A stretch of 64,000 nt of DNA from an uncultured Ectothiorhodospiraceae bacterium (GTDB taxonomy: Bacteria > Bacteroidota > Ignavibacteria > SZUA-365 > GCA-2699105): contig CAYPBB010000010.1 of the NCBI GenBank assembly GCA_964408855.1, forward strand, positions 9,362 to 73,361. Reading direction: 5' to 3'. The translations under genes were made by a program, and so were the position numbers. Below are positions 29,890 through 64,000 of the stretch, in pieces (positions within the stretch are counted from its first letter, which is position 1; each line of letters starts with the position of its first letter). A model generated the notes under the pieces. That model saw nothing but the letters and a program-made list of their open reading frames with translations, had not been told where the DNA came from and searched no databases.

Positions 29890-29912
29890 ACGGCGGCAGT
29901 ATTCATTACACT

Positions 29913-45730: not shown

Positions 45731-46015
45731 ATGAATACCTTTGATACACGAGATTTCTATCTCGCTTGTTTCCTGCATACAGAAGGGATAAGACTCTCTG
45801 GCCATTCGCGAGATGGCTCCAGAGTGATCTTTCATTTCAAGCTAACCGAAGAAACTGAAAACCTAGTGGATAAATATTTCCGGATGGACGCAGAAGTCAA
45901 TCCGATTGAGTACAGCTCGTCTATCAAGCATTTGAAGCACGTGATGTACGACTATACACCGATAATATTGGAGAATGAAGAATGTACAACAACACAGAGA
46001 ACACTAATGAACTAA
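45731..46015 (+). CDS. DUF5659-like small phage/satellite protein
   Basis: TRDFYLACFL...G..L.....GSRVIFHF pattern. Confidence 0.65.
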   Translation: MNTFDTRDFYLACFLHTEGIRLSGHSRDGSRVIFHFKLTEETENLVDKYFRMDAEVNPIEYSSSIKHLKHVMYDYTPIILENEECTTTQRTLMN

Positions 46016-48147: not shown

Positions 48148-48149
48148 CA

Positions 48150-48400
48150 AAAATGGTCCAACCTGGTCCAGGATTGTCCAGGTAACTCGGACCGTGTAAC
48201 TTGTTGATTTATACATAGTTATCTATTGCCGTCCAGGTTGTCCGGTTTTTTATAAATGTACTACGCGAAAAAGAGATTATAGAGATAATAGTTTTCTGTT
48301 TTTCCTGGACAAACCGGACAACAAAACTTAAGTTATTGATATGTATATATTTACAACGTCCCAAAAACTTGGACGAACTTGGATCACTAATCCGGTCCAC
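48150..48400. promoter_or_regulatory. Candidate replication origin (GTCC/GGAC iterons around an AT-rich core)
   Basis: Multiple GTCCA(G)/GGAC motifs; inverted repeat GTTGTCCGGTTT (48237-48248) / AAACCGGACAAC (48311-48322); directly downstream of the helicase. Confidence 0.55.
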
Positions 48401-48431
48401 ATAAACGAAAATGAAATTAAGGTGAAGCATC

Positions 48432-48830
48432 ATGAATATACTTGATACACTAAAACAGCACCCCCGGTTAACAATATCGGGGTACGACGGAGACCCAAAT
48501 GACCCTGAATACGAAGTAAAACGCAATCAACTGAGAATTGAGATGAATTCGTTGGAAATCGCGATCGATTACCTTGAGAGATGTCAAAAGACAAAGGGAT
48601 TCGGTATGACCTACTCTATAGACAGCTACGTTTTGAAACACCATATGGAAGGAAGCAGCCGGGGATACGGCCCTCGAAAGGGATACGTGAGCCAAGGGAC
48701 CGCGATTCTAGCCTGTTTACTGGCGGGATACAAAATAAAACCCGGCGAGCCTTCAGAGCCGAACGTACGTATTGCACTCAAAGAACCAAAACATCGAGTA
48801 GTAGAAACCGCCCTTTTATGGCAGCAATGA
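48432..48830 (+). CDS. Hypothetical protein typical of primase-linked satellite modules
   Basis: DSYVLKHHMEG...YVSQGTAILACLLAGY pattern. Confidence 0.65.
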   Translation: MNILDTLKQHPRLTISGYDGDPNDPEYEVKRNQLRIEMNSLEIAIDYLERCQKTKGFGMTYSIDSYVLKHHMEGSSRGYGPRKGYVSQGTAILACLLAGYKIKPGEPSEPNVRIALKEPKHRVVETALLWQQ

Positions 48831-48867
48831 GGTAACGTGAGTTAATTTTCCCATTTTGTTACTACAT

Positions 48868-48943
48868 TGAAAATAGTATAGACTATTCTGATAGAAAATC
48901 GTTAAATTATTATTTATCGCATAAATAGTCTATACTATTTTCA
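48868..48943. repeat. 20-bp perfect inverted repeat with 36-bp spacer
   Basis: TGAAAATAGTATAGACTATT ... AATAGTCTATACTATTTTCA; each arm contains AATAGT-N4-ACTATT. Confidence 0.85.
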
Positions 48944-49375
48944 TCCAAAAGTGATAATCCCCTAGAAAATGGGTCCCATACCCCACCCCCCCGGGAGTGG
49001 AGTCAGACTGCCATACAAAACAAACCCGTTTTCTGGAGAGAATTCGGGTTTCGATTTTTTTTTGCCCATATTTTGGGAACCCCATTAGCGATTTTGCCCC
49101 GGATTCTAGAAGAGTCTTCCTTTTTACCGCGATAGGATTCACCAAGATCGCCCCGAAGATGCTATGTCCTATATTACTTGACACTTACAACAGCACGGCC
49201 CCTCTGATGCTGCCATCCTCCCCCAGCATTACGTTTCCATCAAATTGCTCATACATATTTCGTCATTCTGCACAATTTTCGTAAGTTTGCCCTTACAGTT
49301 TCAGAAATCTCAGTGTTTTTCGGTGACAATGGACGACCGTTAAAACGGGGGCCCTACCAAGTAAGTGAGAGTATT

Positions 49376-52300
49376 ATGACTTGCTTCTCAAGGATATCCA
49401 AAAATTCTCAAATTCGTACTTCACGTTCACTTCTATTTGCTGTGCTGCTCGTGATGTCTGGGATTCTTACATTATCCTTCGAGAGTAATGCTCAATGTGT
49501 CGTTTTTACCTCACCTACAAGCGGAACAATCGTTTCGCCTGGTGAGACTATCACAGTCACGGGAAATGTAATCAGTCCGAGTAGCTATGGACACTACGTA
49601 ACAATTTATTTCGGCACAACGAATTGTGAAATAGGCGAAATGGTGAGTGGATCGTCTTGTTCTTCAGCTTCCTCGGGAGGTTTTAGCGTCAATATTACCA
49701 TCCCAAATTATGTTGCGACAAATTGCATATACAGAATCTATGGTAGTATTGGTGGAAATTGCGATCCAAAGGAACCCGATCATCCCTGTGCCTGTAACGG
49801 CAACGGAGCATCTATTGAATTGGTCATAACCTGCGATGGCGCACCTCCATACCAACTTCAAGCCCCAAATTTAATATCCCCCATTAATTTTGAAGACAGA
49901 GTACGGAATCCAGCATACCATACCTGGGGAGATGTTCAGAACGCAGAGTTCTACGAAATTCAAGTCGACCCCTCTCCTAATTTCGATACGATTGTTCTTC
50001 AAGATTCCCTTGGCAAACCCTACTACGTTCCGATATTCAGAACAACTATTGATAGAACACAAACTGAGTTTATAGATTTTGCACCTGATTGGGAGAACAC
50101 AACATTTTATTGGCGTGTTCGTGCTGGATCATGTGACTGTAAGGTTTGGGGCCCATGGTCCGAGACATGGAGTTATACTACTGCACCTTGCATATCATTA
50201 GAGTTGCCCTTGAATGGTACAATATTTCAATCCGGTGAAATTACTTTGGTAGAAGGCCGAATTGTGGAGCCGCTTCTCTGGGGTAAAGAGGTAAGTGTAT
50301 GGCTAAATGGCCCCTACTATTATCCACCTGATCCCCAATACCCACCAAGTGAGATCGGACATGGATGTTCCTCCTTGAATGATGGAAGCTTCTCTTTGGA
50401 AATCACCCTGCTATCAGATCCTGGTGATGGTATTGCGCGTTCATTGGTCGATGGTGGATGGACCTTGACCCCTTATGTATTATCCAACGACGACTGTATT
50501 GGTGATGAGTATTATTGCGGTGGTGTTTCACAAGGTATATTCTACATCTACAACGACCTCCCACTTACACGTATTCAGGAACAAATTGGGCGAAATACTT
50601 CGTCAATCTATGTAGATGATCCAGTTGATATAATCACTGGAAACTTTCTTTATTCTGCGAACGATATCCACATCCCTGACAAGTTGGGAATCAACCTTAC
50701 TCGCAATTACAACAGCCAAAATATTCAGAATTCAGAACTCGGTGCAGGTTGGTCTTTCACGTTCGGTGCATCGCTTCAATTAGTTGATGATTGGAGAATC
50801 ATTGCACGCGGGGACGGAAGAAGGTTCGTCTTCAAGATGGATAGCTTGGGGACATACATACCCATGGAGTTTGCAGGAACAGAAGGTACGCTCGATTCAG
50901 CCACAACCGTTTGGACCTACACCAGCAAGTACGGATACAAGTATGATTTTGATAACACGGGACTGCTGCAATCCCTCAGTGACAGAAACGGAAACGAGAC
51001 AAGGTGCTTCTACAAAACGCACAACATGATCGATAGCTTGGTCATTCCTGGGGATAGACGTATTACCTTCTCATACTTGACAAGTCCGGATACGCTCATC
51101 GAATCCATTACTGATTTTATCGGCAGGACTCACAGGTATGCGTACGACACCGAAAGTAATCTTATCAGCTATATCAATCCTAGAGGCGACACGACCAAGT
51201 ACGAGTACGATACACAGCATCATCTGACAAAAATCATTGATCCCAGGGGCAACGTGTTTATTCAGAACAACTATGACCCCAAGGGACGTGTGATTGAGCA
51301 GTACGATGCCTTCGGTGCACGAACCGAGTTTGTGTACGATACGCTCGGGATGAGTACATACGTAGTCAACTACCTCGGTGATACAACAACATACGTCTAC
51401 GATCAGCACCACAGGATACTTTCGCAAACAACAGCTCTTGGATACTCTGAGTCATACGCTTACGATTCAACAAACAATCGAGCGTCGATCGATGACATGA
51501 ACGATGAGCTGTTCTCCTATCCTGAATACAGCCCCTTTGGTGATGTTGCCAGGGAGGAGAATCCTGTCTCGCAGGTCCGTACGTTCTCATACGATAGCAC
51601 AACAGGCGACTTGCTTGCGAGAGGTGATGACCTTGGCACCCTGGAAGAACGGAGCTACTCCACAAACGGTCTCCTCTTACAGCTAACGGATGCAAATGGA
51701 TCAGCGACCAATATGACATACGATGGTTATGGCTACCTGGAATCGACATCCATGGTAGCAGATGGGGCTTCCCGGACTACAGAATACGATTACGACATAG
51801 CCGGACGTATGCTCTCCAGGAAGAATCCGGAAGGAGATGTCACGGATTATCAATACGATGAATCTGATAATGTCACGTCTACCCTCTTTGCCAACGGAGC
51901 CAGTACTCAGAATGAATATGACGCAAACGACAATCTCATCAAGTCGATAGATCGAAACGGTAATGAGACCCGCTTTGAGTACGATGTAAACAATAACCTG
52001 CGGTTTGTTTACGCTCCTGAGAGCAAAACGACGGAGTATCGTTACGACAGTTTGAATCGCGTGACCAGTATGATCGATGCCGAAGGCGGTGTCTATGCGT
52101 ATCAATACGATGCCATGGGAAGAAAGACGCTTTCCATTGATCCGATAGGACGAACTACACACATGGGATACGACGGCAATGGCAACATGCTGTTCTCCAC
52201 CTCACCGAAAGGCGATACGACGCAGTTTATCTACAACGCTATCAATCAACTTGTTGAGAAGGTTAGTCCCGAAGGAAACACAACAAGTTACAGCTATGAT

Positions 52301-55300
52301 GTACGGGGAAGTCTCACTCAGATATCATATCCGAGTGGCAATACAATAGAGTACACATACGACGGGAACGGGAACCAGACATCAAAGAAGGAATATCTCG
52401 ACTCTACGACTACAAGGACCACAACCTACACATACAACGAAGCCAACCAGCTTGTGGAAACAACATATCCAAGCGGTGGAAAGGAGAAACGTACCTACGA
52501 CCGGAATGGCAATCTGATTGAACTGGTTACCATTGATGGCAAAACGACAGCATACGAATACAACGAGATGAACCGGGTTTCGAAAGAAACTGATTACAGG
52601 CAATTCTCCCAAGCGTATCAGTATGACAACAATCTGAACCTTCTTTCTGAGACTGATGATCTTGGAAGGCGGACAGCATACGCATACGACAAGGTCAACA
52701 GACAGGTAAGCACTACCGATCCCATCGGGAATACAGACTCCCTGGTGTACGACAAGCTCGATCGCGTTGTGCAAATGATCGATGCCAATGGAAATGCAAC
52801 AGTGTATGGCTATGATGCCGCTGGTCAACTGACTAGCGTCACGGATCCGCTTGGTAATTCCATGTCGTACCAGTATGATCTCAACGGTAATCTGTCACAG
52901 ATCACTTATGGAAATGGAAGAGTTGTAAGCGGCTTCATCTATGATAAGGACAACCGGTTACTCAACGAACCCGATCCGCCGACGTGGTACACGTACGATC
53001 CAAATGGCAACATTGCCTCGAAAGTCGATGCGAATGGTGATACAACTTCATACGAATACGATGGCGCCAATCAACTGCTCAGGAAGACCTTCAGCAGCGG
53101 AGGGAGCGTCCAGTATTCCTATAATGCAAATGGACTAGTGGAAAGCATAGAAGATGAGCAAGGACTTATCCGGATGCAGCACAATGCCGCAAATCAGTTG
53201 CTGGAACTTGCCACCCCGGATGGTATAATCCAGTACCAATATGCCGGTCCGAACAGGGTATCGATGAAGTATCCGAATGATGAGTTGCTCAAGTACTCCT
53301 ACGACCGCAACCGGCTTACAACCATTGAAGGGACCAGGGATGCAATAAGCTATACGTACTATGACAATGGACTCATTGAATCTTTGACCTATCCTGATAG
53401 TTCCGTTACTTATTATGCTTATGACGAAGCGAACCAGTTAGAGACGATCCTCAGTGAAACATCCGATGGTGAACTCATCACATCGGATGCTTACAAGTAC
53501 GATGAAGCAGGGAACAGAGTGATCAACATTCGCACGAGGCGCAGAAACCCCGGATTTGTCGGGGTACTTGTGGACAGCACGCTTCCCATGACGGCACTTC
53601 TAGCAAAGCATTTCTTCGATTCGCCAGTGGATACTATTCTCATCTGCTCCAATAGAGGATTCGCGCACAATGCTACTATAGCTGCCTATGCAAGTAAGCT
53701 CAATGCTCCGGTATTGTATGTGAATCCAAACACTCTGGTCGGCTCTCCCGAATTTACTACCGTCTTCTCGGACTTGACAGCAGGGTTCTCAGCTCCGCAT
53801 GCCATCGTATTTGGCGATGAAACTACCGTTTCCGATTACGTCGTTTCGCAATTGCACAGACTTGGTTGTACTACGGTGAGGATTTTTGGCAACAATCGTT
53901 TCGAAACCGCCAATCTCGTTGCCTCAAAGTTGCCAGTATATTCTGGTCAAAGAAAAGCATTCCTCACGGGATCATCGAATCCGGAAGACCTGGCCATATC
54001 TGCGTATGCTTCGGCGCTTCTGGGCATTCCTCAGTATATGACGTACAACGACGAGCTTGCACCTGAAACACTTGCTGCATTACAATCAGCGGGAATAGAT
54101 TCCATCATTGTTGTTGGCAACTCCATATCCGACGCTGTACTTCAGCAGTTGATAAGCAATGGAATTGTAGTAGTGCAACGATTTGATCAAGACAATATCC
54201 GCGAGCGTAGCGCAGCCATTCTGACAAACAGCGGGACCAACTTGGCTGAGAAGGGTCCCCTTTATCTTTGCGAGTCAAAGAACTTCAGGGAAGCGATTGC
54301 CATTTCAACTTACGTTGCGAACAGGAGCGGGTATGTCATCTGTGTGGATGATCCGGCCGACTATCTTGCAACAGTCTCGGACATGATCTCAATTGGCACT
54401 GAGGTTGATTCGATTTTCCTGCTGCAGACAAATCCGTTTGTCGACCAACAGGCGATTCAAATCCAACAGACGTTTTTCGGATACGAGGTTGATACTGTAC
54501 GCTACACCTACGATGATATGAACCAGCTTCTTGCCGAGAGCAGCAAGACATTTGGTGTGATGCAGTACACGTATGATGCCAACTACAATCGATCACGCCT
54601 TGTGGACAATGGTGTTGCTACCGATTACGCCTACGATACCTGGGACCGTCTTATCTCTGCCGGTACTACTGCGATGAATTACGACGGCAATGGAAACTTG
54701 ATAACCGAAACTGACGCTGACAAAACAAGTCAGTATGTATGGGATAGTCGTGGACGGCTCGCCGAGTACAACAATTCTCTTGGAGATACTGCACGATACA
54801 CCTACGATGCGCTAAACCATCGCATTCGTATTTCGAACATTCATTCCGAAGCATCTCCTGAGACAACCTCCTTGGTCTATGGTGACGATTGGGATGCTAT
54901 CCTCGAATTCGGTACGGCAGAAGACTCAATCAACTATCTGAGTGGTTTTGGTATCGATGATGTGTATCTGTCCCGCTCAGAGCAGGTATCGTTCCTCTAC
55001 AAAGATGCACTAGGGAGTATTGTTAGCGCAAGTAGCGACGAATCACAATCGTTCTCATCCTTGATGTACGATGGATTTGGGAATGCGAACCGGAATCTGA
55101 GTGTGTTTCCTTTGAGGTACTCGTACACAGGGCGGGAGTATGATTCACCTCTCAAGGGCTATTATTACCGAAATCGCACATACTCAGCTAGAAGAGGAAG
55201 ATTTCTATCGATGGATCCTATTGATCCACAAAAATGGTATTCTAGCAGTTTAAATAAGTACATTTATGTTAAAAACAATCCAGTGCGCTGCATCGATCCG

Positions 55301-55837
55301 AATGGGTATTATGGAATTGCGGTCAACTTCAATGCATCTATAGCATACTACGTTGGATTAGATTTTGACGTTACAATTGGATACGATGATAAGATTGGCT
55401 TATATAACAGCAATGACGTTGGGCTGCTCATCGGTATGGGATTGGATGGTAATGCATCTCTCGATATAGTTACAGAAGATAAAGTTCTGACTAGACATGG
55501 AGTAATTGTAAAGATACCAATTTCTGCCGATTTAGAGGTAGTTAAAGTCATTAGTGCAACACTCCTTGGCTTAGAGTATAGAGTTGGATCAGATGAAATC
55601 AGTATAAATCCCGATGTTGCATTTGCCAATGTCCATGGTGGTAGCAAAATTAATTTCTCTCTAAAAGAGTTGCAGTTGCCTGACGCTTATCCCAAGTTTG
55701 GCTTGCGCGGCGGGGTCGGGGCAGCACTAAAAATCGCCTCTATCTCGTATAGAAGTGAGAATACTATTGATATATCATGGATTACACCACATATATATAA
55801 TGCGAAAAGGATGTTAGACGAAATCATATTAAGATAA
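49376..55837 (+). CDS. Rhs/YD-repeat protein: signal peptide, Ig/FN3-like domains, DUF6531, YD repeats with inserted CWB2 trimer, Rhs core, about 176-aa C-terminal domain
   Basis: DPVDIITGN...LTRNYNSQ...LGAGWSFTF (DUF6531); YxYD repeats; GNNRFETA (CWB2); YSYTGREYD...YYYRNRTY...FLSMDP...NNPVRCIDPNG. Confidence 0.93.
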   Translation: MTCFSRISKNSQIRTSRSLLFAVLLVMSGILTLSFESNAQCVVFTSPTSGTIVSPGETITVTGNVISPSSYGHYVTIYFGTTNCEIGEMVSGSSCSSASSGGFSVNITIPNYVATNCIYRIYGSIGGNCDPKEPDHPCACNGNGASIELVITCDGAPPYQLQAPNLISPINFEDRVRNPAYHTWGDVQNAEFYEIQVDPSPNFDTIVLQDSLGKPYYVPIFRTTIDRTQTEFIDFAPDWENTTFYWRVRAGSCDCKVWGPWSETWSYTTAPCISLELPLNGTIFQSGEITLVEGRIVEPLLWGKEVSVWLNGPYYYPPDPQYPPSEIGHGCSSLNDGSFSLEITLLSDPGDGIARSLVDGGWTLTPYVLSNDDCIGDEYYCGGVSQGIFYIYNDLPLTRIQEQIGRNTSSIYVDDPVDIITGNFLYSANDIHIPDKLGINLTRNYNSQNIQNSELGAGWSFTFGASLQLVDDWRIIARGDGRRFVFKMDSLGTYIPMEFAGTEGTLDSATTVWTYTSKYGYKYDFDNTGLLQSLSDRNGNETRCFYKTHNMIDSLVIPGDRRITFSYLTSPDTLIESITDFIGRTHRYAYDTESNLISYINPRGDTTKYEYDTQHHLTKIIDPRGNVFIQNNYDPKGRVIEQYDAFGARTEFVYDTLGMSTYVVNYLGDTTTYVYDQHHRILSQTTALGYSESYAYDSTNNRASIDDMNDELFSYPEYSPFGDVAREENPVSQVRTFSYDSTTGDLLARGDDLGTLEERSYSTNGLLLQLTDANGSATNMTYDGYGYLESTSMVADGASRTTEYDYDIAGRMLSRKNPEGDVTDYQYDESDNVTSTLFANGASTQNEYDANDNLIKSIDRNGNETRFEYDVNNNLRFVYAPESKTTEYRYDSLNRVTSMIDAEGGVYAYQYDAMGRKTLSIDPIGRTTHMGYDGNGNMLFSTSPKGDTTQFIYNAINQLVEKVSPEGNTTSYSYDVRGSLTQISYPSGNTIEYTYDGNGNQTSKKEYLDSTTTRTTTYTYNEANQLVETTYPSGGKEKRTYDRNGNLIELVTIDGKTTAYEYNEMNRVSKETDYRQFSQAYQYDNNLNLLSETDDLGRRTAYAYDKVNRQVSTTDPIGNTDSLVYDKLDRVVQMIDANGNATVYGYDAAGQLTSVTDPLGNSMSYQYDLNGNLSQITYGNGRVVSGFIYDKDNRLLNEPDPPTWYTYDPNGNIASKVDANGDTTSYEYDGANQLLRKTFSSGGSVQYSYNANGLVESIEDEQGLIRMQHNAANQLLELATPDGIIQYQYAGPNRVSMKYPNDELLKYSYDRNRLTTIEGTRDAISYTYYDNGLIESLTYPDSSVTYYAYDEANQLETILSETSDGELITSDAYKYDEAGNRVINIRTRRRNPGFVGVLVDSTLPMTALLAKHFFDSPVDTILICSNRGFAHNATIAAYASKLNAPVLYVNPNTLVGSPEFTTVFSDLTAGFSAPHAIVFGDETTVSDYVVSQLHRLGCTTVRIFGNNRFETANLVASKLPVYSGQRKAFLTGSSNPEDLAISAYASALLGIPQYMTYNDELAPETLAALQSAGIDSIIVVGNSISDAVLQQLISNGIVVVQRFDQDNIRERSAAILTNSGTNLAEKGPLYLCESKNFREAIAISTYVANRSGYVICVDDPADYLATVSDMISIGTEVDSIFLLQTNPFVDQQAIQIQQTFFGYEVDTVRYTYDDMNQLLAESSKTFGVMQYTYDANYNRSRLVDNGVATDYAYDTWDRLISAGTTAMNYDGNGNLITETDADKTSQYVWDSRGRLAEYNNSLGDTARYTYDALNHRIRISNIHSEASPETTSLVYGDDWDAILEFGTAEDSINYLSGFGIDDVYLSRSEQVSFLYKDALGSIVSASSDESQSFSSLMYDGFGNANRNLSVFPLRYSYTGREYDSPLKGYYYRNRTYSARRGRFLSMDPIDPQKWYSSSLNKYIYVKNNPVRCIDPNGYYGIAVNFNASIAYYVGLDFDVTIGYDDKIGLYNSNDVGLLIGMGLDGNASLDIVTEDKVLTRHGVIVKIPISADLEVVKVISATLLGLEYRVGSDEISINPDVAFANVHGGSKINFSLKELQLPDAYPKFGLRGGVGAALKIASISYRSENTIDISWITPHIYNAKRMLDEIILR

Positions 55838-55904
55838 CTATATCTCAATGGATGTTATACGAATCTAGATTGTCAATAAGTGATAATGCATTGATACTGA
55901 GGTA

Positions 55905-58517
55905 ATGATGATATACGTAATTGTTGATTCACTTGCACTATTTTCATTTATTTGTTGTTTGTTTCAATCGGCATTTGCGCAATCTGTGAATCCTGTGGGT
56001 ACGTCACTAGAGGTTTATGAATCATCTAACTCTATAAGTGTTGGTATTGTTTCAATTTCGCAAATTAATTCACACTCTTTCCTGCATGAACTGCGCTCAG
56101 GTGGAAACGGCTCCCTCATCGCATCCATTCCCGATCAATTGAAAGGCATGCCAACGTCCATCGCCGTTTTCGACCATACTATCCTAATCGGCTACCAGGA
56201 CTCAAACGAAGTACTCTTTTACAACTGTGTAACCTCTGCACAAACTTCCATCAAGTCTCCGAACAAGCATCTATTCGGTACTACTATCTCCAATGTCGCG
56301 AGTAGCTCTGGTCATGATTATTTTTGTGTTGCAGCAGAAACGTCCGGACAGGTCTTTCTGTATGATGGGCTCCCTAGTGCATTTGACCTATACGAACAGG
56401 TTCTTGAAGGTCTTCCCAGTTCTGGCTATGGACGAAGCTTGAGAGTTATTGACAATCTCACGGGCAATAATAAACCGTACGTTATTGTAGGAGGCCCATA
56501 CACATCAGATTCACTTATGGAGTACGGGAAGATTTACCTGTACTCAGGCCAACCGTTTGTCTTGGTGGATTCGATTTCAGGACCATGTGAATACTCGCAT
56601 TTTGGATCATCTCTTTCATCGGGCGATGTAAACGGCGACAGCTATCACGATCTAGTAGTAAGCGCCCCTGGCTCGGGAAATCATCACGAAGGAGCTGTCT
56701 ACGTGTACTACGGAGGGCCTCATTTCGATACAACCCCGGACAAAGCCTACTACGGGACACAGGCAGACGAATTGTTCGGTAACTCCATTCTTGCAGTAGA
56801 TCGTCGAACTGCTATGATTGGTGGCCTCGCGATTGGCAGCTACAATGCATCGCACAATGGCCAGTCCCGCAACGGCGCCTTGCACTGGTACAACATCACA
56901 AATCCACCGAACAGCAAAGCGGATACGGTGATCTATGGCGAAGCATCAAGCGATCACATGGGCTGGGCTTCTGCATTCATGTCCAAGTCTGCCACCTCTG
57001 ATTCCTGCGCAATACTCTACTCGTCACCGTACAATAGCTCGGCCAACAGTATTGAAGGCAAGGTGCATGTACTGGACCTCTTCAAACCGCGAGTCAAAGG
57101 ATTCGTAATCAATACATACCCGGAAAACATTGGCCTTAAGATCAAGGTCGAAAACAAGGAGTATCGGGACGGAGTCACTCTCGAATCAATCGTCGGAACG
57201 CCCTATCTGTTGTATACACAGGAAGTGCAGTATTCAGACTCGACTAATCAGCAAGTTCGCTGGCGTTTCGACCGGTGGAGTGATGGTGGAGAAAGAATCC
57301 ACAACGTCACCGCCGAAGAAGGAACTGTGATTACGGCATACTTCAAGAAAGAGGTAATGATTACATCGAGCGTCCTTCCGAACTGCGGCTCAACAGGTGT
57401 GTACGGTACAATCGAAGGTAATGAGTGGCATCAGGTGGGAACCTCGGAAACGCTCACCGCTATTCCGAGTCCCGGCGCAATGTTTTCGGGTTGGGAAGGC
57501 GCGGTCTCTCAAACCTCAGAGACTTTGACGCACGACTTCACTGAACCAACCACAGTTATTGCACGCTTCAAACTTCAGAATCCTGAAATAGACGATGTAC
57601 TCAACACGAGCATCAGCAGCAACGACCTGTCGATGGATATTTACTGGCATGATAATGCAAAAGGATTGGCAGAAGTTTGGACACTTGAGCGTAAATCATC
57701 TGTTGGAAATACGTGGAGTGAAGTAGCAACGCTCATCACGGGAAACAGTCCATACAGGGATACACACCAGCTCATCGAAAAAAGTAGCTATGCCTACCGG
57801 TTAAGAGCGAATTCATGCGATCCGACCAGCAATTCAGGCTATGGCGATATAGACCTTACAACGGTATTGGGGATGGATTCTGTCGTCATAGTCGAACCGC
57901 AGCCTCCGCTTGTAATTCAATATGACGACAATCACAATCCACTCGGAAATTTCCTGGTGAAGTTTTCACTCACGAACAAAACCGTGGATGAGTTCGAAGA
58001 CTCTCTTACTACGGAATTCATGGTCATGTCTGGGAATGTAGCATTGGCACCAGGTGAGATAGCATCGAAGCCATACTATGGTATCTTCACGACACAGGAG
58101 AATTACATCGCTACTTGGGAATGTGTCCCTGCGTATCAACCGTCAGACGACCTGGCAGTTGTCGCAATCAGATACTACCGCACCCCAGAACGCGCCGACA
58201 CTGCCTACAGTGAACCAATCGAGATTACACATACGATTGTCGGAATAGAATCGCCTCCTTCGGTACAATCGTACCGACTCTTTCAGAACTATCCCAATCC
58301 GTTTAGCGGCAACACAACCATTCTCTTCTACGCCAGTTCAAGCGCGACTGTCTCTTTGGTCATCCATGACATACTTGGCCATCCCGTGTACAAACGTGGA
58401 ATAGAGCCTACCGTAGGCCTCAATAGAATTGACATCAGCGGACTCCCATCCGGATCATATCTCTACGTTCTCCAAACTAATGAAGGATCGTTGTCCGGGA
58501 TAATGATAGCAAGATAA
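55905..58517 (+). CDS. T9SS-secreted FG-GAP/integrin-alpha propeller protein with InlB-type repeat and FN3-like domains
   Basis: Signal peptide; GDVNGDSYHDLVVSAPG...GAVYVYYG; FDRWSDGG, FSGWEG; LFQNYPNPF...SGSYLY CTD. Confidence 0.85.
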   Translation: MMIYVIVDSLALFSFICCLFQSAFAQSVNPVGTSLEVYESSNSISVGIVSISQINSHSFLHELRSGGNGSLIASIPDQLKGMPTSIAVFDHTILIGYQDSNEVLFYNCVTSAQTSIKSPNKHLFGTTISNVASSSGHDYFCVAAETSGQVFLYDGLPSAFDLYEQVLEGLPSSGYGRSLRVIDNLTGNNKPYVIVGGPYTSDSLMEYGKIYLYSGQPFVLVDSISGPCEYSHFGSSLSSGDVNGDSYHDLVVSAPGSGNHHEGAVYVYYGGPHFDTTPDKAYYGTQADELFGNSILAVDRRTAMIGGLAIGSYNASHNGQSRNGALHWYNITNPPNSKADTVIYGEASSDHMGWASAFMSKSATSDSCAILYSSPYNSSANSIEGKVHVLDLFKPRVKGFVINTYPENIGLKIKVENKEYRDGVTLESIVGTPYLLYTQEVQYSDSTNQQVRWRFDRWSDGGERIHNVTAEEGTVITAYFKKEVMITSSVLPNCGSTGVYGTIEGNEWHQVGTSETLTAIPSPGAMFSGWEGAVSQTSETLTHDFTEPTTVIARFKLQNPEIDDVLNTSISSNDLSMDIYWHDNAKGLAEVWTLERKSSVGNTWSEVATLITGNSPYRDTHQLIEKSSYAYRLRANSCDPTSNSGYGDIDLTTVLGMDSVVIVEPQPPLVIQYDDNHNPLGNFLVKFSLTNKTVDEFEDSLTTEFMVMSGNVALAPGEIASKPYYGIFTTQENYIATWECVPAYQPSDDLAVVAIRYYRTPERADTAYSEPIEITHTIVGIESPPSVQSYRLFQNYPNPFSGNTTILFYASSSATVSLVIHDILGHPVYKRGIEPTVGLNRIDISGLPSGSYLYVLQTNEGSLSGIMIAR

Positions 58518-58539: not shown

Positions 58540-58580
58540 GAAAGGCACACATCTGGTCAAATGCACTGGGTGTGCCTTTC
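58540..58580. terminator. Hairpin between convergent units
   Basis: GAAAGGCACAC ... GTGTGCCTTTC. Confidence 0.55.
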
Positions 58581-58743: not shown

Positions 58744-59451
58744 TCACCCTATCACCGTCCTTTCCAACCGGTCCTTCCAGCGCTCCCAGTCCGGCATGGC
58801 TGCCGACATCAGCCGGTAGAATTTCTTGTCGTGATTTGGATGAACTAGATGGCAAAGCTCATGTATGATGACGTAATCGATACACACGAGCGGGGCTTTT
58901 ATGAGTTCGGTGTTCAGCGTAATGGTGCCATGGCCGGTGCAGCTCCCCCAACGTGATGTCATCGTTCGCAAGATGATTTTGGGATATGCAGCGCCTCGTT
59001 TAGCGAACCAGGGGTAATACCCATCAACCTTCCGGTTGAACATTTCTGATGCATGCTTCCGGTACCAATCTCGCATCACTTTTTTAGCTGAGGAAGAATC
59101 CATTGGCTCCGGTAATTCTACCTCAAAGAACTTCCCCACTAGCCGTACTCGTCTCTTCTCGCCTAGTCTGATTTTCAATCGATATTGCCGCCCCAGGTAG
59201 TAGTGCGTTTCTCCGCTCACGTATTCACGTGGAGGTTGAAGAGGGTGGAATTGGTCGAAATAGTTGAGTTGCTTCACAATCCAGGGTGCTTTGCGAAGAA
59301 TTCTAGACTTTACTTCCTCCAGCGGCTTTCCACTTGGCACTATTGCTTCGACTCTCATATCCGGATGCACATTGATCGTCAAGGACCTACGATCACGTTC
59401 GTGAACGATTACAACAAACCGTGTACTTCCATATTCGAAGAATAACTTCAA
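58744..59451 (-). CDS. M48/YgjP (DUF45) family metallopeptidase associated with type I R-M
   Basis: YVSGETHYYLG, MTSRWGSC, YVIIHELCH..HPNH...FY; directly downstream of hsdR. Confidence 0.9.
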   Translation of the reverse strand: MKLFFEYGSTRFVVIVHERDRRSLTINVHPDMRVEAIVPSGKPLEEVKSRILRKAPWIVKQLNYFDQFHPLQPPREYVSGETHYYLGRQYRLKIRLGEKRRVRLVGKFFEVELPEPMDSSSAKKVMRDWYRKHASEMFNRKVDGYYPWFAKRGAAYPKIILRTMTSRWGSCTGHGTITLNTELIKAPLVCIDYVIIHELCHLVHPNHDKKFYRLMSAAMPDWERWKDRLERTVIG

Positions 59452-59457
59452 GGTCTA

Positions 59458-62400
59458 CTACCTTTCTTCCCTGCTCTGGGCAATAGCAAGACACCGATCC
59501 ATAATCTCATCGAACTGGTCCACATCCACAGACAACCCATCATCCAACGCTTCGAAGAGCAGATCATCCAGTTCATTTCGCATCTTGTTCTTTTGTGGTT
59601 CGTTGTAGTACCAGTTCACAATGCGTAGACGATTGATGACCTCATCTATTTTAAGACACAACTCTGCTGTTTTTTCAGCATCCGAATCGCCCGAGAAATT
59701 CTTGATGCTTCGAAAATATGCAGCCGCGACATCATTGTTTTGCAACCTGGCCGGCAGATCGTCTCCGCGTCTCGTACGAACTTGCTCCTCAAACTGTCTT
59801 ACCTTCGATAGATACTCGCTCTCACTGATACGCTTGTTACGAAAATCGTCGATCGTAGCCTGGATCAGTTCAGAGAAACGCTTATAGAATTCCGGATCCC
59901 TGTCCCAAAGCTCATTGATTGATTTCTTTGTCCTGTGAGCGATTGTGTCAGCTTTTGCTGCATCTGTTGAGAGCGCATCAACCTCAGCCTGGAATGCATC
60001 TTTCTCAAAGATGTTTACGGGTGCAATTATCGTTTCTACCTCTTCAGCACCAACGTACGTGTCAAGTAGTCTCTTGATTTTCGGTTCGTACTCTGCGAAG
60101 TCTACACTTTCGGCGAACCTGCGTCCCAGGCTGTGACGAATCTTGTTATAGCGTTTCAGATCTTGCTTGTACATCTCAATTGTAGCTGCAGGAGTAATCT
60201 CGTGGAACCTGACTGTCGATAGGGCCATTTCCATGACGTTCGCAAACTCTCGGAGGTTAGCATAGAACTTATCCCGTTCCGATCGTTCAGTCAGAAACTG
60301 CGCAATCTCCTCTGTGTCGTAGCGATTTCTTAGCGTTGTGAACTGACCGACCAGGACACTGTGTTTCTGCTTGACATCAGGCAACTGTTCTTTCACATCT
60401 GTCAGCAATCCTACCAGGTCTTTCGCGTCGAAATCTTCGAGCTTCTCGTAGAGCTTCAAAGCATTATCCAGCTCGCCAAGCACTCCGCGATAATCGATGA
60501 TGTAGCCATATTCCTTGGCTTCATACAGTCTGTTCACCCTGGCAATTGCCTGTAGGAGTGTATGCTCTTTCAGCATGCGAATGAGATAGAGAATAGTATT
60601 CCGAGGGGCGTCAAATCCTGTAAGAAGCTTATCGACGACAATGATTATCTCCGGATCGTCAGCGTTCTTGAAATTGGTGATAATCTGCGTATTGTACTTC
60701 TCCTCGCTTCCCCAACGGTACATCATCTTCTTCCAAAAGTCCAGCACGTCGTTCTTGTCGTCGTCACCTTCGATTTCACCTTCGCGATCATCGGGTCCGG
60801 AGATAAGAACCTCCGATGTCACCCGCTTAAAGGAATCAAGGTATTTCTTGTACTTCAATGCCGTAGCTTTGCTGGACGTTACCAGTTGAGCTTTGCGGTC
60901 CTTTCCTTTCCAGTTGTCAGCGAAATGCTCACTTATGTCCCAGGCAATTCTCATTATTCGCTGTTCAACGTTGTTGATCTGATCAGTGCTGGAGTACCGT
61001 TTCTTTAGGTCATTTGCTTCTTCCTTTGACAGCCTTTTTGTGACTTTCTCAAACCAATCGTCAATACTCTCCTTTTGTACGATTTGCTGAGAATGCCGAC
61101 CTTCGTAAAGTAACGGGACGACGGCTCCATCATCCACTGCTTGATTGATCGTATAGGTATCGATCAATCCACCAAACCGTTTTATGGTATCCTTTTCATT
61201 TCTTCTAACCGGCGTCCCTGTGAAGCCAATGAAACATGCCTTTCTCAACACGCGCTTCATTGCGCTGTGCAGTTTTCCATATTGAGTACGGTGCCCCTCG
61301 TCGACAAGCACGAAGACTTCTGTGCTGTCGATTGGCGCCTTCATCTTTACAAGCGCCGTCTCGAACTTATCAATGACTGTTGTAATGATACTGACATTAC
61401 GCCGTTCCAACATCTCGGCAAGATGTTTCCCGGATTTCGCTCTCTCCGGCTCCAGGTTGCAGTCAGAGAATGTATTGTAGATCTGCTCATCGAGATCAAC
61501 ACGGTCAGTAACGACGACGATTGTTTCGCCTTTAATCGCAGGTGACTGAAATATCCCTTGGACCAGCATCACCATACTTAACGACTTCCCACTTCCTTGC
61601 GTATGCCAGACCACTCCGCCTCTACGAGTCCCATCTTCATCAAATTCCAGTATCCTTTGCAGCATCTTTTCAACAACGAAATACTGCTGATACCGTGGTG
61701 TTTTTCGGACTCCCCTATCGAAGATGCTATATGACCGTATATTCTTGAGCAAGCGCTCACGGTTACAAAGCGCAAACAACAACCGGTCCTGCTCCGTTAC
61801 CATGCGATCGACATGATATTCGTTGGTTTCCTCGTTGACCACTCGTCCGCCCGGGATTGCGAGAGCACGGAGCTGTTCATTACTTAGACTCAGGTCGAAT
61901 ACCCTTTTTACGTCATCATCTGAATACTCGCGCTCCTTCCATACCGACCAGTACTCTCGTGATGTACGGACAGTCCCGTACTTTGCTGCACTCTCGGCCA
62001 CTGCAATCAGGAGTTGGGCGTAGTGAAACAGGCGTGGGATTTCATCCTCGTTCTGGTTCTTTATCATTTGATTGACAGCCTGGTCAACCGGGTCTGTTGT
62101 ACCTGGCGCCGCCCTGTCCTTACATTCGATGACCACTACGGGGATGCCGTTGATGAACAGCACAATGTCGGGTATTCGGTGCTTGTGCATACCAGACCGC
62201 TCTACCTTGAACTCCTCAACGACGTGGTAAACGTTACGATCCGAATTTTCCCAGTCGATGTAATGCAGTGTTTTGCTTTTAACGTCCTCACTTACTGTAA
62301 ACGATTTCCCATGTGTTAGTATCTCGTGGATTTTCTGATTCGTGGGGATAAAGCCACTTTCCTCCCTGCGCTTCAGGTCAAGCACAGCATCGCGGATAAC

Positions 62401-62622
62401 AGTCTCCGGGAAACGATGCTTCTTCCCAAGATGTTCATATTCTGCGTTTTGTTTGAGCCATTCACTAAGAACTTTCTCAAGTAAAACATTCGAGTAATCC
62501 TCCCCGCGTAGTTCGTAGACCTCGCCATCTGACAGATACTCCCAGCCAAGCTTTTGCAAAAGTATCAGGGCAGGGAGCTTGCTCTGTTCGTCCTCGTTGT
62601 GCTGGTGGATGTAGATTGCCAT
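59458..62622 (-). CDS. hsdR: Type I restriction enzyme R subunit
   Basis: PDIVLFINGIPVVVIECK nuclease motif; HTQGSGKS, VDEGHR, FTGTP, LLTGFDAP, LLQAIARVNR helicase motifs. Confidence 0.97.
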   Translation of the reverse strand: MAIYIHQHNEDEQSKLPALILLQKLGWEYLSDGEVYELRGEDYSNVLLEKVLSEWLKQNAEYEHLGKKHRFPETVIRDAVLDLKRREESGFIPTNQKIHEILTHGKSFTVSEDVKSKTLHYIDWENSDRNVYHVVEEFKVERSGMHKHRIPDIVLFINGIPVVVIECKDRAAPGTTDPVDQAVNQMIKNQNEDEIPRLFHYAQLLIAVAESAAKYGTVRTSREYWSVWKEREYSDDDVKRVFDLSLSNEQLRALAIPGGRVVNEETNEYHVDRMVTEQDRLLFALCNRERLLKNIRSYSIFDRGVRKTPRYQQYFVVEKMLQRILEFDEDGTRRGGVVWHTQGSGKSLSMVMLVQGIFQSPAIKGETIVVVTDRVDLDEQIYNTFSDCNLEPERAKSGKHLAEMLERRNVSIITTVIDKFETALVKMKAPIDSTEVFVLVDEGHRTQYGKLHSAMKRVLRKACFIGFTGTPVRRNEKDTIKRFGGLIDTYTINQAVDDGAVVPLLYEGRHSQQIVQKESIDDWFEKVTKRLSKEEANDLKKRYSSTDQINNVEQRIMRIAWDISEHFADNWKGKDRKAQLVTSSKATALKYKKYLDSFKRVTSEVLISGPDDREGEIEGDDDKNDVLDFWKKMMYRWGSEEKYNTQIITNFKNADDPEIIIVVDKLLTGFDAPRNTILYLIRMLKEHTLLQAIARVNRLYEAKEYGYIIDYRGVLGELDNALKLYEKLEDFDAKDLVGLLTDVKEQLPDVKQKHSVLVGQFTTLRNRYDTEEIAQFLTERSERDKFYANLREFANVMEMALSTVRFHEITPAATIEMYKQDLKRYNKIRHSLGRRFAESVDFAEYEPKIKRLLDTYVGAEEVETIIAPVNIFEKDAFQAEVDALSTDAAKADTIAHRTKKSINELWDRDPEFYKRFSELIQATIDDFRNKRISESEYLSKVRQFEEQVRTRRGDDLPARLQNNDVAAAYFRSIKNFSGDSDAEKTAELCLKIDEVINRLRIVNWYYNEPQKNKMRNELDDLLFEALDDGLSVDVDQFDEIMDRCLAIAQSREER

Positions 62623-62626
62623 GTTT

Positions 62627-64000
62627 TTATTGTCCCTCCAACGCAGAAAACATCTTGTTAATAAAGCCTACTAACTCTGTGCGAGTCAATTCTCTTTCAG
62701 GTATAAAATCATCTATCTGATGACTTTCAGCGTTTGCTATTACCCTAATTTCGTTCAGCATTTCTGTCTTTTTATCGCTGATTAACGACCTATGTTTCAA
62801 TTCAGCGATCTTTGCTGACAGTTTGTCAATCTTTGATATGTACCGATAATATTGTCTGTTCAATACACCTTCTAATACATCTCGCATGAGATGTTGAATA
62901 TAGCTGATTGATTGCCCTGAATCATTTCTACAGTAGTCGTCTAACTCCTCTACTTTTTGCGCAAAACTATCTTTTGCGAATTCAGATGGATCACAGCGTT
63001 CATACCTGCTGCCAGTATCATCACAGCGAATTTCGAACTCTCCACTAACACCATATTTCTTCTTATCCCGGTAGTACTTTTGATGTTGAATAGCAACACT
63101 TTTCCGATGTGTTAACACAATTGTTTGCAAGCAGTCGGACGAAAGAGTTGCAATAATCTTTGCAGTCTGATATCTTCGGTCATCATCCATGCTTGTTAAT
63201 GGATCATCGTAGATCACAATTGTATCCGATAGTTTTGGATCGTACTTCAGCGATGCAATGAAGAATGCAAACGCAAGAGAATTCCGATCTCCACCGCTGA
63301 GTATATTCTTGAAACAAGGGACATTTTCACTCGAAGAGAGTGGAGCACCTTCACCGTTGATCACAATCTCGAATTCTGCGAGTTTACCCATCCTCTTGTC
63401 AGTCTTTTCTTTAAATGACCGAACAGAAAACGATGTATTCAGTTCCTTCAGTACTCTGTTTATCTCATCTTCGTAGTTGGAGAAGTTTCCAAGATACTTA
63501 TTCAGTTTGTCCTCGATTTCCTTGAACTTATCATCTGCTTTTTCTTTCTCTTCCTTGGCAGAATTGTAGCCAGTCACCCATACCATTCCCTCTTCAGTGA
63601 ATCGAAATAGGCGATGCTCGAATCCGCGCGTCTTTTTCTTCGCGTCTTCAATGCTGGCCGGACTCTCAGCCCGCTCTTTAAACGATGTTACCCTCTCATT
63701 GAGCGTCTTAATTTGTTCATTTATATCTGTCACAATCTGTTGAATCACAGATTTGGCGTCTTTGTACTTTTCTACGGCACCAGGTTCTGCCGTGCGATTG
63801 AGGTCTTCCACTTTTCGATTGAGTTCATTCTTCAGTGCTTCAAATGCTTTGCTCAACTGAGTCTTGAGTGCTTCCTGATCAACATCTTCGGTCAGAGAAC
63901 CTGAGAGCTCCTCCTTGATAATACTCGACCAGGAACTTATTTGGGCATCAATTTTCTGTATCTCAAGAATGAGCTTGTCTATGATGGTGTTAGCATCAAA
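62627..64000 (-). CDS. RloC-like AAA_13/SMC-type ATPase with C-terminal HEPN-like domain (5' end outside the window)
   Basis: Frame open to 64000; long coiled coil, LSGGDRNSLAFAFF signature, IVIYDDPLTSMD Walker B, IVLTH; HLMRDVLE...IANAESH. Confidence 0.75.
   Translation of the reverse strand, partial: FDANTIIDKLILEIQKIDAQISSWSSIIKEELSGSLTEDVDQEALKTQLSKAFEALKNELNRKVEDLNRTAEPGAVEKYKDAKSVIQQIVTDINEQIKTLNERVTSFKERAESPASIEDAKKKTRGFEHRLFRFTEEGMVWVTGYNSAKEEKEKADDKFKEIEDKLNKYLGNFSNYEDEINRVLKELNTSFSVRSFKEKTDKRMGKLAEFEIVINGEGAPLSSSENVPCFKNILSGGDRNSLAFAFFIASLKYDPKLSDTIVIYDDPLTSMDDDRRYQTAKIIATLSSDCLQTIVLTHRKSVAIQHQKYYRDKKKYGVSGEFEIRCDDTGSRYERCDPSEFAKDSFAQKVEELDDYCRNDSGQSISYIQHLMRDVLEGVLNRQYYRYISKIDKLSAKIAELKHRSLISDKKTEMLNEIRVIANAESHQIDDFIPERELTRTELVGFINKMFSALEGQ

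Follow-up and report, generated by a model that had tools for sequence, protein, structure and literature searches.

The window, by which we mean the whole 64-kb stretch of DNA that was analysed, belongs to an uncultured Ignavibacteria genome and contains 38 genes, six of which encode a T9SS CTD. An Rhs/YD-repeat gene and a gene for an FG-GAP protein form a co-directional two-gene module there, in a lower-GC island at ~41-64 kb (Table 1). The junction of the two genes is no assembly artefact, because two further Logan assemblies (SRR12489244 and SRR12489243) span it at 100% identity. No terminator-like site was found in the 67-nt spacer, and the hairpin past the FG-GAP gene probably ends the transcription unit. 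An earlier note on this DNA had described an 870-aa signal-peptide FG-GAP protein with a T9SS CTD, 67 bp past the Rhs gene, where an immunity gene would be expected. Coordinates and domain matches agree with this description, and no immunity-sized co-directional ORF was found between the two genes or after the FG-GAP gene. Neither an upstream CARDB gene nor a TcA-like translocator gene was found in the window.

Table 1 Features of the Rhs/FG-GAP locus, in positions of the window.
Feature	Position	Strand	Remarks
Rhs/YD-repeat gene	49376-55837	+	Likely start ATG 49376; ORF opens at GTG 49313; database gene call from ATG 49454
Predicted Sec signal peptide of Rhs, MTCFSRISKNSQIRTSRSLLFAVLLVMSGILTLSFESNAQ	49376-49495	+	Read from sequence
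CW_binding_2 (CWB2) repeats	53525-54517	+	Pfam PF04122; ~330-aa insertion in YD shell
Rhs-associated core	55067-55306	+	TIGR03696, 55.2 bits vs cut-off 32.5
Low-GC cassette	~55200-56100		Last ~35 core codons, tail, spacer, partner signal peptide and N-terminal linker
Core end, NPVRCIDPNG	55277-55306	+	
C-terminal cargo (tail), 176 aa	55307-55834	+	Orphan; beta-amphipathic, acidic
Stop codon of Rhs ORF	55835-55837	+	
Spacer, Rhs to FG-GAP gene, 67 nt	55838-55904		GC 0.31
T9SS type-A cargo gene (FG-GAP protein), 870 aa	55905-58517	+	Pfam and NCBIfam matches above cut-offs
Signal peptide of FG-GAP protein, MMIYVIVDSLALFSFICCLFQSAFA, followed by Q	55905-55982	+	Read by eye
FG-GAP repeat region	~56172-57074	+	FG-GAP E 1e-11
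Flg_new_2 (InlB-B-repeat/Ig-like region)	57396-57575	+	Above curated cut-off
Por_Secre_tail CTD / TIGR04183	58290-58493	+	Above curated cut-off
Terminator-like hairpin with T-run	58548-58574	+	31 nt past FG-GAP stop
YgjP-like gene	58744-59451		Convergent to Rhs/FG-GAP pair
hsdR	59458-62622		Convergent to Rhs/FG-GAP pair

A search of 1.84 billion representative proteins returned a single full match to the Rhs protein, namely itself (P0001). Its N-terminus carries Ig-like domains, and Pfam and NCBIfam profiles recognise 18 RHS_repeat stretches (E 1e-116), DUF6531, TEN_YD-shell and the Rhs_assc_core TIGR03696. PAAR or VgrG-type domains are absent by the same profiles, and SpvB or TcdB-mid domains gave no match. 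The signal peptide, read from the sequence without a predictor, has a basic n-region, a hydrophobic core and a putative cleavage site between SNA and Q. The wall-binding CWB2 insertion (E 9e-14, 52 bits vs cut-off 24.9), flanked by YD repeats on either side, is unusual for a YD shell; PF04122 was present in 0 of 120 Rhs relatives, among the matches listed. In an alignment of nine Rhs cores, the Asp residues of LSMDP and IDPNG match the invariant columns D224 and D251, and the autoproteolytic motif of the core is intact.

The tail that follows NPVRCIDPNG had been noted as beta-rich and unrecognisable, and in all libraries searched it indeed has no relative. Pfam and NCBIfam gave no match to it even at E<=10, and neither did a 5.8-billion word-index search or the PDB sequences; exhaustive phmmer returned only the tail itself and three spurious repeat proteins, and scans of metagenome and genome contigs, confirmed by tblastn, revealed no relative. 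The tail is rich in Ile (11.9%), Leu (10.2%), Gly (9.7%) and Val (8.5%), has no Cys, and alternates strongly in hydrophobicity. Alternation in its N-terminal 24-mer ranks within the top 0.1% among 17,485 windows, a level reached by 121 of 5000 shuffles. No helical TM segment was found in it (maximal KD19 1.49), and the AF2 model was unusable (pLDDT 28.7). The tail does not resemble a CTD (hhalign probability 0.14%).

In the FG-GAP protein, homologues match only amino acids ~90-390 and the CTD, whose canonical YPNP motif aligns with the five other CTDs of the window.

The tail and the start of the partner gene lie in one low-GC block. Of 1263 sliding 900-bp windows, the one at 55201-56100 has the lowest GC content (0.37, z -2.15; mean of the whole window 0.491), and the edges of the block at ~55200 and ~56100 are sharp. 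GC3 is 0.335 in the tail versus 0.485 in the Rhs body, and 0.26 in codons 1-65 of the FG-GAP gene versus 0.51 in the remainder, the lowest 5' value of the 38 genes, with recovery at codon 52. Since the dip also appears at third codon positions, it is more than an amino-acid effect. The AT-rich block reported in the earlier note over the Rhs tail and the first ~60 FG-GAP codons was thus confirmed, and its proposed origin as a swapped module gains support, because the dip is present at synonymous sites too.

Close homologues of the Rhs protein, its tail or the FG-GAP protein were found neither in the protein libraries nor in the contig scans. None of three sampled FG-GAP relatives had a visible Rhs neighbour; one of these stands at the end of its contig, so that nothing upstream of it could be seen, and upstream of another there is only a partial gene of 50 aa. 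A CTD neighbour is absent at four of six sampled Rhs relatives, and several signal-peptide Rhs relatives lack one; a further distant relative (P0158) shows the order Rhs, 277-aa ORF, DUF7619/CTD. Adjacency of an Rhs and a CTD gene is by itself weak evidence, because with CTDs on 6/38 window genes the chance of one lying downstream is ~0.16.

A comparable arrangement was found in gut and rumen Bacteroidales. Among loci collected with the Rhs-core profile, 18 had enough downstream DNA, and in 15 of these the ORF after the Rhs gene was 700-1278 aa long and separated from it by 0-100 nt; following ORFs at non-Bacteroidota Rhs loci were 50-300 aa long. The 15 partners carry DUF7619 (15/15), Por_Secre_tail (13/15) and Flg_new_2 (5/15), and no immunity gene was found at these loci. 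A signal-peptide Rhs followed by a large T9SS-CTD protein without an immunity gene is thus a conserved Bacteroidales arrangement, in the order CARDB protein, signal-peptide Rhs, DUF7619/CTD protein. The Rhs tails are polymorphic, and 2 of 20 are peptidoglycan hydrolases (M23, M15). All 15 pairs show a low-GC3 footprint over the core end, tail, spacer and first ~50-65 partner codons, with mean values of 0.65 in the body, 0.49 at the core end, 0.24 in the tail, 0.20 in the spacer, 0.37 in partner codons 1-65 and 0.69 in codons 66-130; GC3 recovers close to the first conserved motif. The corresponding window values, 0.51, 0.43, 0.34, 0.31, 0.26 and 0.55, fit this pattern. Rhs 5' ends and neighbouring genes, used as controls, are free of the dip (Mann-Whitney p 6e-6 and 4e-7); as the loci share kinship and are non-independent, these counts and p-values overstate independence. 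The FG-GAP protein is homologous to the Bacteroidales partner only in the CTD (hhalign probability 10.7%).

Rhs/YD polymorphic toxins include T6SS PAAR-Rhs proteins such as RhsA and Tse5, and the general class of polymorphic toxins was reportedly treated by Zhang and colleagues in 2012. The window Rhs resembles the Rhs/YD toxins in its YD shell, DUF6531, core ending in PxxxxDPxG and variable C-terminal domain, which is of typical size and foreign composition. It departs from them in having a Sec signal peptide, in lacking a PAAR/VgrG adaptor and a downstream immunity gene, in the CWB2 insertion and in a tail of no known family. With the WapA-type Sec-dependent wall-associated Rhs toxins of Gram-positives (PMC12704120) it shares the combination of signal peptide and wall-binding module with an Rhs shell and a C-terminal cargo; however, its host is a diderm with T9SS-type cargo, its wall-binding repeats lie inside the shell and not N-terminally, and a WapI-like immunity gene is missing. 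A further comparison is with the Bacteroidales trio, which may include the PGN_1817/1818 neighbourhood of P. gingivalis 381 (PMC6775972): both have a signal-peptide Rhs, a large T9SS type-A cargo gene within 100 nt, no immunity gene and a low-GC3 cassette reaching from the core end into the first ~50-65 partner codons, and some trio partners likewise carry Flg_new_2. Unlike the trio, the window has a partner with FG-GAP repeats and without DUF7619, no upstream CARDB gene, no conserved QNIIRPKI mature N-terminus, and an Rhs ~700 aa longer through Ig-like and CWB2 additions. TANFOR toxins of Bacteroidetes (PMC7073777), which have been hypothesised to use the T9SS, are also polymorphic toxins with a signal peptide and no CTD of their own, in neighbourhoods enriched for CTD substrates. 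They usually have recognisable immunity genes. No TANFOR domain was detected here, and the scaffold of the window protein is a different one, an Rhs shell.

The reading that we place first, at a probability of about 0.45, is a coupled module in which an exchangeable toxin-like tail would be joined to a constant CTD partner aiding T9SS export or tethering of the Rhs protein. The tail would have been acquired by recombination between two conserved stretches, the Rhs core as left arm and the body of the partner as right arm, and its long amphipathic beta segments suggest that it may be membrane-active. The partner would be a coupled component and no chance neighbour, and by analogy with the Bacteroidales trio we infer that it probably helps the periplasmic Rhs over the outer membrane, or tethers or presents it there, via the T9SS. 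As the immunity gene is missing, the cargo would not endanger sister cells: kin may lack its target, or it may act from outside. The carrier pair that the earlier note envisaged stands in part: the layout and GC3 footprint recurring in Bacteroidales favour, by analogy, a real coupling of the two genes, while the FG-GAP relatives without a visible Rhs neighbour and the ~0.16 chance of adjacency count against it. Links of Rhs or polymorphic toxins to the T9SS were proposed earlier (PMC6775972, PMC7073777): a T9SS cargo gene adjoins the largest Rhs gene of P. gingivalis 381 (PMC6775972), and CTD substrates are enriched around signal-peptide TANFOR toxins (PMC7073777). No description of hitchhiker export through the T9SS was found in the literature searched, and the recurring layout hints at a T9SS-linked export route for Rhs toxins.

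It is doubtful, though well worth weighing, that the two genes are neighbours without shared function, an ordinary Sec-dependent Rhs toxin (its immunity gene lost, elsewhere or unneeded) beside one of the genome's many surface proteins of the T9SS. The low-GC tract would then mark no more than the reach of one recombination or insertion. The abundance of CTD genes in the window, the Rhs-free FG-GAP relatives and the signal-peptide Rhs relatives without a CTD neighbour fit this, as does the lack of close homologues of both genes, with which conservation of the pair cannot be shown. Chance, however, leaves unexplained a footprint that extends ~50-65 codons into the CTD gene in 15/15 Bacteroidales pairs and in no control, and the common strand, 67-nt gap and terminator-free spacer also count against this reading. 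We regard as unlikely a non-toxic tail, whether in a wall or surface YD-shell protein (a scaffold or adhesin resembling teneurin or WapA) or as decayed or structural cargo that needs no immunity gene. The absence of a catalytic motif, a family match and an immunity gene would agree with it, and the CWB2 insertion and Ig-like domains suggest anchoring; but the core motif is intact, both conserved Asp residues included, which is how an encapsulated cargo is released, the tail is a cassette of foreign composition, as is typical of toxin tails, and the analogous Bacteroidales tails are polymorphic, with M23 and M15 hydrolases among them.

Two further readings bear on the missing immunity gene. Either the whole FG-GAP protein or just the ~40 N-terminal residues swapped along with the tail could be a protective factor, a surface binder that neutralises the tail in place of a small immunity protein: the gene sits at the immunity-gene position, its 5' end shares the low-GC cassette with the tail, and beta-propellers are common binding scaffolds. 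We hold this very improbable, since we know of no immunity protein that resembles an 870-aa protein of adhesin-like architecture, and the N-terminal linkers of the Bacteroidales partners do not follow tail identity (loci L091 and L092 differ in their tails and have similar linkers). Least probable of all is an Rhs aimed at non-bacterial targets, such as grazers or eukaryotes of other kinds, much as the TcB/TcC cocoon of Tc toxins is, which would explain the absence of an immunity gene; to our knowledge TcC-type cocoons likewise have none. Against it, the window holds no TcA-like translocator, the Rhs lacks SpvB and TcdB-mid domains, and the Bacteroidales tails of known function are peptidoglycan hydrolases and hence antibacterial.

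The stretch encodes a large Rhs protein whose stop codon is followed, after a spacer of 67 nt, by a gene encoding a T9SS cargo protein with FG-GAP repeats. The most plausible start of the Rhs gene is the ATG at position 49376, which gives MTCFSRISKNSQIRTSRSLLFAVLLVMSGILTLSFESNAQ, a Sec signal peptide as read by eye. This putative N-terminal signal peptide, read from the translation, is the trafficking feature of the protein; searches with Pfam and NCBIfam found no PAAR or VgrG match in it. The YD/RHS repeat shell was recognized by PF05593 (18 stretches, E 1e-116) and TIGR01643 (E 6e-84), and the same libraries revealed a weak Ig-like domain and DUF6531. In the N-terminal 414 amino acids Big_7 was the only match, and a TANFOR model may be absent from the libraries used. 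Among the matches listed, the best Rhs relatives are at most 34% identical to the window protein.

The Rhs-associated core spans amino acids 1919-1998 (TIGR03696, 55.2 bits against a cut-off of 32.5), and the residue that follows its final motif, of the PxxxxDPxG type, is Y where L is usual. In an alignment of the window core with eight other Rhs cores, the aspartates of LSMDP and of IDPNG occupy the invariant columns D224 and D251, and we take them to be the catalytic aspartates of TcC/Rhs autoproteolysis. Since both are present, the cargo should be able to come free within the shell.

Features of the Rhs/FG-GAP locus, its surroundings and the Bacteroidales cassette (window positions, or loci where indicated)
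Feature	Position	Strand	Length	Description
UvrA gene	9485-12412
CTD protein	20747-24886
Three tandem paralogous secreted proteins	26962-31343		492, 476, 476 aa	each with a C-terminal T9SS CTD
CTD protein	39768-40247
Upstream ORF	48432-48830		132 aa
Perfect inverted repeat	48868-48943		20-nt arms, 36 nt between them	TGAAAATAGTATAGACTATT / AATAGTCTATACTATTTTCA; non-coding, upstream of the Rhs gene
Rhs ORF	49313-55837	+	2174 codons	translation
CW_binding_2 (CWB2) repeats	53525-54517		about 330 aa	within the YD shell of the Rhs protein, YD repeats on either side
Core end	55277-55306			NPVRCIDPNG
Tail (C-terminal cargo of the Rhs protein)	55307-55834	+	176 aa	I/L/G/V-rich, acidic, no Cys
FG-GAP gene	55905-58517	+	870 aa	putative signal peptide, FG-GAP repeats, Flg_new_2, T9SS type-A CTD; domain matches above curated thresholds
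Terminator-like site	58548-58574
YgjP-like metallopeptidase, type I restriction HsdR and AAA_13/DUF4145 protein	58744-63856	-		genes in a row
Bacteroidales cassette	loci L089-L108, L113			CARDB-repeat giant, signal-peptide Rhs, ~936-aa DUF7619/Por_Secre_tail protein; no immunity-sized gene

The wall-binding CWB2 repeats inserted in the shell are absent from all of the 120 Rhs relatives listed, and their role could be to hold the cocoon on a wall polymer, either the producer's own or that of the target. Beyond the DNA encoding the YD repeats, no extra repeats or orphan rhs fragments were found around the locus. The inverted repeat ahead of the Rhs gene could serve in regulation or recombination.

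An earlier note on this DNA described the tail as beta-rich and with no recognisable catalytic motif, and our searches bear this out. No Pfam or NCBIfam family matched the tail even at E≤10, there was no match among PDB sequences, and a word-index search of 5.8 billion clusters found no relative. An exhaustive phmmer search against 1.84 billion representatives returned the tail itself and three weak matches, all of them repeat-protein artefacts, and scans of metagenome and genome contigs, confirmed by tblastn, revealed no homologue. The sequence exhibits a strong beta-type hydrophobic alternation and no helical transmembrane segment. The alternation of its first 24 residues is in the top 0.1% of 17,485 windows drawn from the proteins encoded in the window, a value that 121 of 5000 shuffles also attain. 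A single-sequence AF2 model was unusable (pLDDT 28.7). The possibility that the tail is a cryptic T9SS CTD was ruled out by comparison with the six CTDs of the window (hhalign probability 0.14%). We infer that the tail is a toxin, possibly a membrane-active one; as it has no relatives at all, it is a candidate for a new toxin or membrane-active fold.

The downstream gene is as the note had read it, since its translation and the matches at curated thresholds agree with a signal-peptide FG-GAP protein bearing a CTD. The putative Sec signal peptide, read from the sequence, is MMIYVIVDSLALFSFICCLFQSAFA|Q. The CTD occupies amino acids 796-863 of 870 (PF18962, 35.3 bits against 27; TIGR04183, 38.7 bits against 23), and its YPNP motif aligns with those of five other CTDs in the window. 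Homologues found in the protein search are related at repeat level only, over amino acids ~90-390 and the CTD, and the genome contig collection held no relatives of the protein. Both the Rhs and the FG-GAP proteins lack the close homologues that a synteny comparison of orthologous pairs, as suggested in the note, would need.

The absence of an immunity gene was likewise upheld: neither the spacer nor the region after the FG-GAP gene includes a credible small co-directional ORF. Two candidates were considered and rejected. One is a 60-aa ORF located after the terminator; the other is the upstream 132-aa ORF, which lacks a signal peptide and any family assignment and goes with the mobile DUF5906 genes. 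No terminator-like site was found between the Rhs and FG-GAP genes and one follows the second gene; apart from this hairpin, the promoter and terminator scan remained at background level. The junction is spanned by two other assemblies with 100% identity. Three Logan contigs that overlap the window are all 100% identical to it. One of them (window 41224-55909) ends exactly at the FG-GAP start codon, and the other two both end at the same spot inside hsdR (window 62466-62470). These common assembly breakpoints may reflect strain variation or repeats; a look-up of sequencing runs that might show strain variants or RNA found none.

Six distant Rhs relatives were sampled. In one of them, P0131, the Rhs gene is followed 101 nt later by a gene encoding a 1785-aa DUF7619/Flg_new_2/CTD protein, and in another, P0158, a 277-aa ORF lies between the Rhs gene and a downstream gene for a DUF7619/CTD protein. 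No CTD neighbour was found in the remaining four, among which P0125 and P0126 bear signal peptides. The P0126 locus includes two tandem signal-peptide Rhs genes, each followed by a gene for a secreted protein (276 and 593 aa) with a shared Cys-rich, Pro/Lys-rich C-terminus, and the two Rhs genes are separated by CsgG-like genes; the locus may represent a further non-classical type of Rhs partner.

A diverse Rhs-core profile was too variable for a locus search, and a narrower profile based on the P0131-type core identified 78 loci. In the loci from outside the Bacteroidota, the ORF that takes the classical immunity position after the Rhs gene is 50-300 aa long. In Bacteroidales loci (Prevotella, Paludibacteraceae, Muribaculaceae and others) the next ORF is 700-1278 aa long and begins after a gap of 0-100 nt in 15 of the 18 loci with enough downstream DNA. 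All 15 of these partners contain DUF7619, a CLIPPER-like isopeptide Ig domain of surface proteins (PMC12617251), 13 contain Por_Secre_tail and five Flg_new_2. The Rhs proteins of these Bacteroidales loci have signal peptides, the mature N-terminus is conserved (QNIIRPKI...) and the tails are polymorphic; only two of 20 tails have a Pfam match (Peptidase_M23 and Peptidase_M15_3, both peptidoglycan hydrolases). A CARDB-repeat giant gene is located upstream, and the genes past the partner are unrelated. The Bacteroidales cassette is thus a conserved module in which polymorphic tails are followed by a constant T9SS cargo, without an immunity gene.

The note had also pointed to an AT-rich block around the junction. 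A sliding-window analysis bore this out: among 1263 windows of 900 bp, 55201-56100 has the lowest GC (0.37, mean 0.491), with sharp edges, and the dip is present at third codon positions (GC3) too. Codons 1-65 of the FG-GAP gene have a GC3 of 0.26, compared to 0.51 in the rest of the gene, the lowest 5' value among 38 genes. A similar profile was found in 15 Bacteroidales Rhs-partner pairs.

Base composition along the Rhs-partner unit in 15 Bacteroidales pairs and in the window
Segment	Measure	Bacteroidales mean	Window
Rhs body	GC3	0.65	about 0.485-0.51
Last 300 nt of core	GC3	0.49	0.43
Tail	GC3	0.24	0.335
Spacer	plain GC	0.20	0.31
Partner codons 1-65	GC3	0.37	0.26
Partner codons 66-130	GC3	0.69	0.55

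GC3 recovers at codons 34-84 of the Bacteroidales partners, near the first conserved motif (DPNEIIG), and at codon 52 of the FG-GAP gene. Controls, namely the signal-peptide 5' ends of Rhs genes and neighbouring genes, exhibit no dip (mean difference about -0.03, compared to -0.28 in partners; Mann-Whitney p 6e-6 and 4e-7, values that overstate independence because the Bacteroidales loci are related). The simplest reading is that the exchangeable module has a conserved recombination arm on each side, formed on the left by the Rhs core and on the right by the partner's conserved body. If the partner body is the right arm, the partner would be a fixed part of the module.

Compared with Rhs/YD polymorphic toxin-immunity systems, the window protein shares the YD shell, the core with both aspartates and a signal-peptide-like N-terminus, but no small immunity gene lies directly downstream. 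The variable 176-aa tail has no family match. WapA-type toxins of Gram-positive bacteria combine Sec export, wall binding and Rhs repeats (PMC12704120). The window protein resembles them in its putative signal peptide and CWB2 repeats, and differs in that its host is a member of the Ignavibacteria, not a monoderm, its CWB2 repeats are internal and a WapI-like immunity gene is missing. With the Bacteroidales cassette the locus shares a signal-peptide Rhs, a short spacer, a large CTD protein, the lack of an immunity gene and a low-GC3 tract that extends from the end of the core into the partner, up to about codon 50-65. Unlike in the cassette, the partner here has no DUF7619 (a profile alignment covers the CTD only, probability 10.7%), the upstream genes are DUF5906 and the 132-aa ORF instead of a CARDB giant, and the Rhs N-terminus differs from QNIIRPKI. 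The carrier pair proposed in the note is therefore partly supported: Rhs/CTD-partner modules with the same footprint recur in Bacteroidales, but the FG-GAP protein shares only the CTD with their DUF7619 partners, and the CARDB gene is lacking.

We propose, with a probability of roughly 25%, that Bacteroidota including Ignavibacteria possess a class of Sec-exported Rhs toxins without CTD or immunity gene that are exported, tethered or aimed by a dedicated T9SS cargo encoded directly downstream, a DUF7619/CTD protein in Bacteroidales and an FG-GAP/CTD protein here, the unit being swapped between arms. By analogy with the cassette, the partner would rely on the T9SS for exporting the periplasmic Rhs, or for tethering or presenting it. 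Immunity would be dispensable if kin are not at risk, and the exchangeable unit would comprise the tail, the spacer and the signal peptide and linker of the partner, swapped between two conserved arms. The rival to which we give most weight, itself held only tentatively, is that the two genes are adjacent by chance. Six of the 38 genes in the window encode proteins with a canonical YPNP CTD, so that a CTD gene is expected directly downstream of any given gene in about 16% of cases. An Rhs neighbour was seen at none of three sampled FG-GAP relatives; one of them is at the end of a contig, which hides its upstream side, and another has only a 50-aa partial gene upstream. The common GC3 footprint, judged by analogy with the Bacteroidales pairs, would be the strongest argument against accidental adjacency in the window.

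The Rhs protein might instead be a non-toxic scaffold or adhesin, which we regard as unlikely; the orphan tail and the CWB2 repeats are compatible with such a role, and the intact pair of core aspartates and the peptidoglycan hydrolase tails of the cassette point to a toxin. That the FG-GAP partner, which occupies the immunity position, is itself the immunity factor is very improbable. Least probable of all is an anti-eukaryotic, Tc-like role. Compared with TcB/TcC, the window Rhs lacks SpvB/TcdB-mid domains, and no TcA translocator was found among the annotated window genes.

A link between Rhs toxins and the T9SS is not a new idea. Moradali et al. reported that in P. gingivalis 381 the largest Rhs gene has a T9SS cargo gene beside it, and suggested that there is a mechanistic link (PMC6775972). 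Jana et al. found that CTD substrates are enriched near TANFOR toxins with signal peptides and put forward export by the T9SS as a hypothesis (PMC7073777). New here are an example from the Ignavibacteria in which the partner is an FG-GAP protein, the CWB2 repeats inserted in the shell and the wholly orphan tail, as well as, as far as the literature searched shows, the immunity-less Bacteroidales cassette and its GC3 footprint. The locus bears on how signal-peptide Rhs toxins exit diderm cells that do not use the T6SS for them, and on the part of the T9SS in interbacterial antagonism, which both papers raised from gene neighbourhoods alone. Together with the cassette it offers a concrete gene pair, a compositional signature that places the partner in an exchangeable module, and the question why polymorphic tails come without immunity genes. 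If our proposal is true, the T9SS would have a role in the delivery of polymorphic toxins, through a hitchhiker or partner mechanism. With Prevotella and P. gingivalis 381 there are cultivable candidate carriers in which this can be tested directly.

The UvrA protein of the window shares no more than 73% identity with sequences from Ignavibacteria MAGs, which makes the host an uncultured representative of this class, without a close genome in the collections. Its genome probably encodes a T9SS, given this affiliation and the CTD proteins, of which there are six in 64 kb including the three tandem paralogs. The Rhs/FG-GAP pair is located in a lower-GC3 part of the window, at ~41-64 kb, where GC3 is about 0.37-0.55, compared to mostly about 0.4-0.75 at 1-41 kb. 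This part also includes DUF5906 (primase-like) and DUF5659 genes upstream of the pair, MORN-repeat genes, and convergent YgjP-like, type I HsdR and AAA_13/DUF4145 genes downstream. It looks like a genomic island in a defence-rich setting; no tRNA, Rfam feature or integrase marking the island ends was found in the window. The AAA_13 match covers profile positions 335-712 only, so the gene may be truncated or continue differently upstream, and its place beside type I restriction-modification genes recalls a PrrC/RloC-type arrangement.
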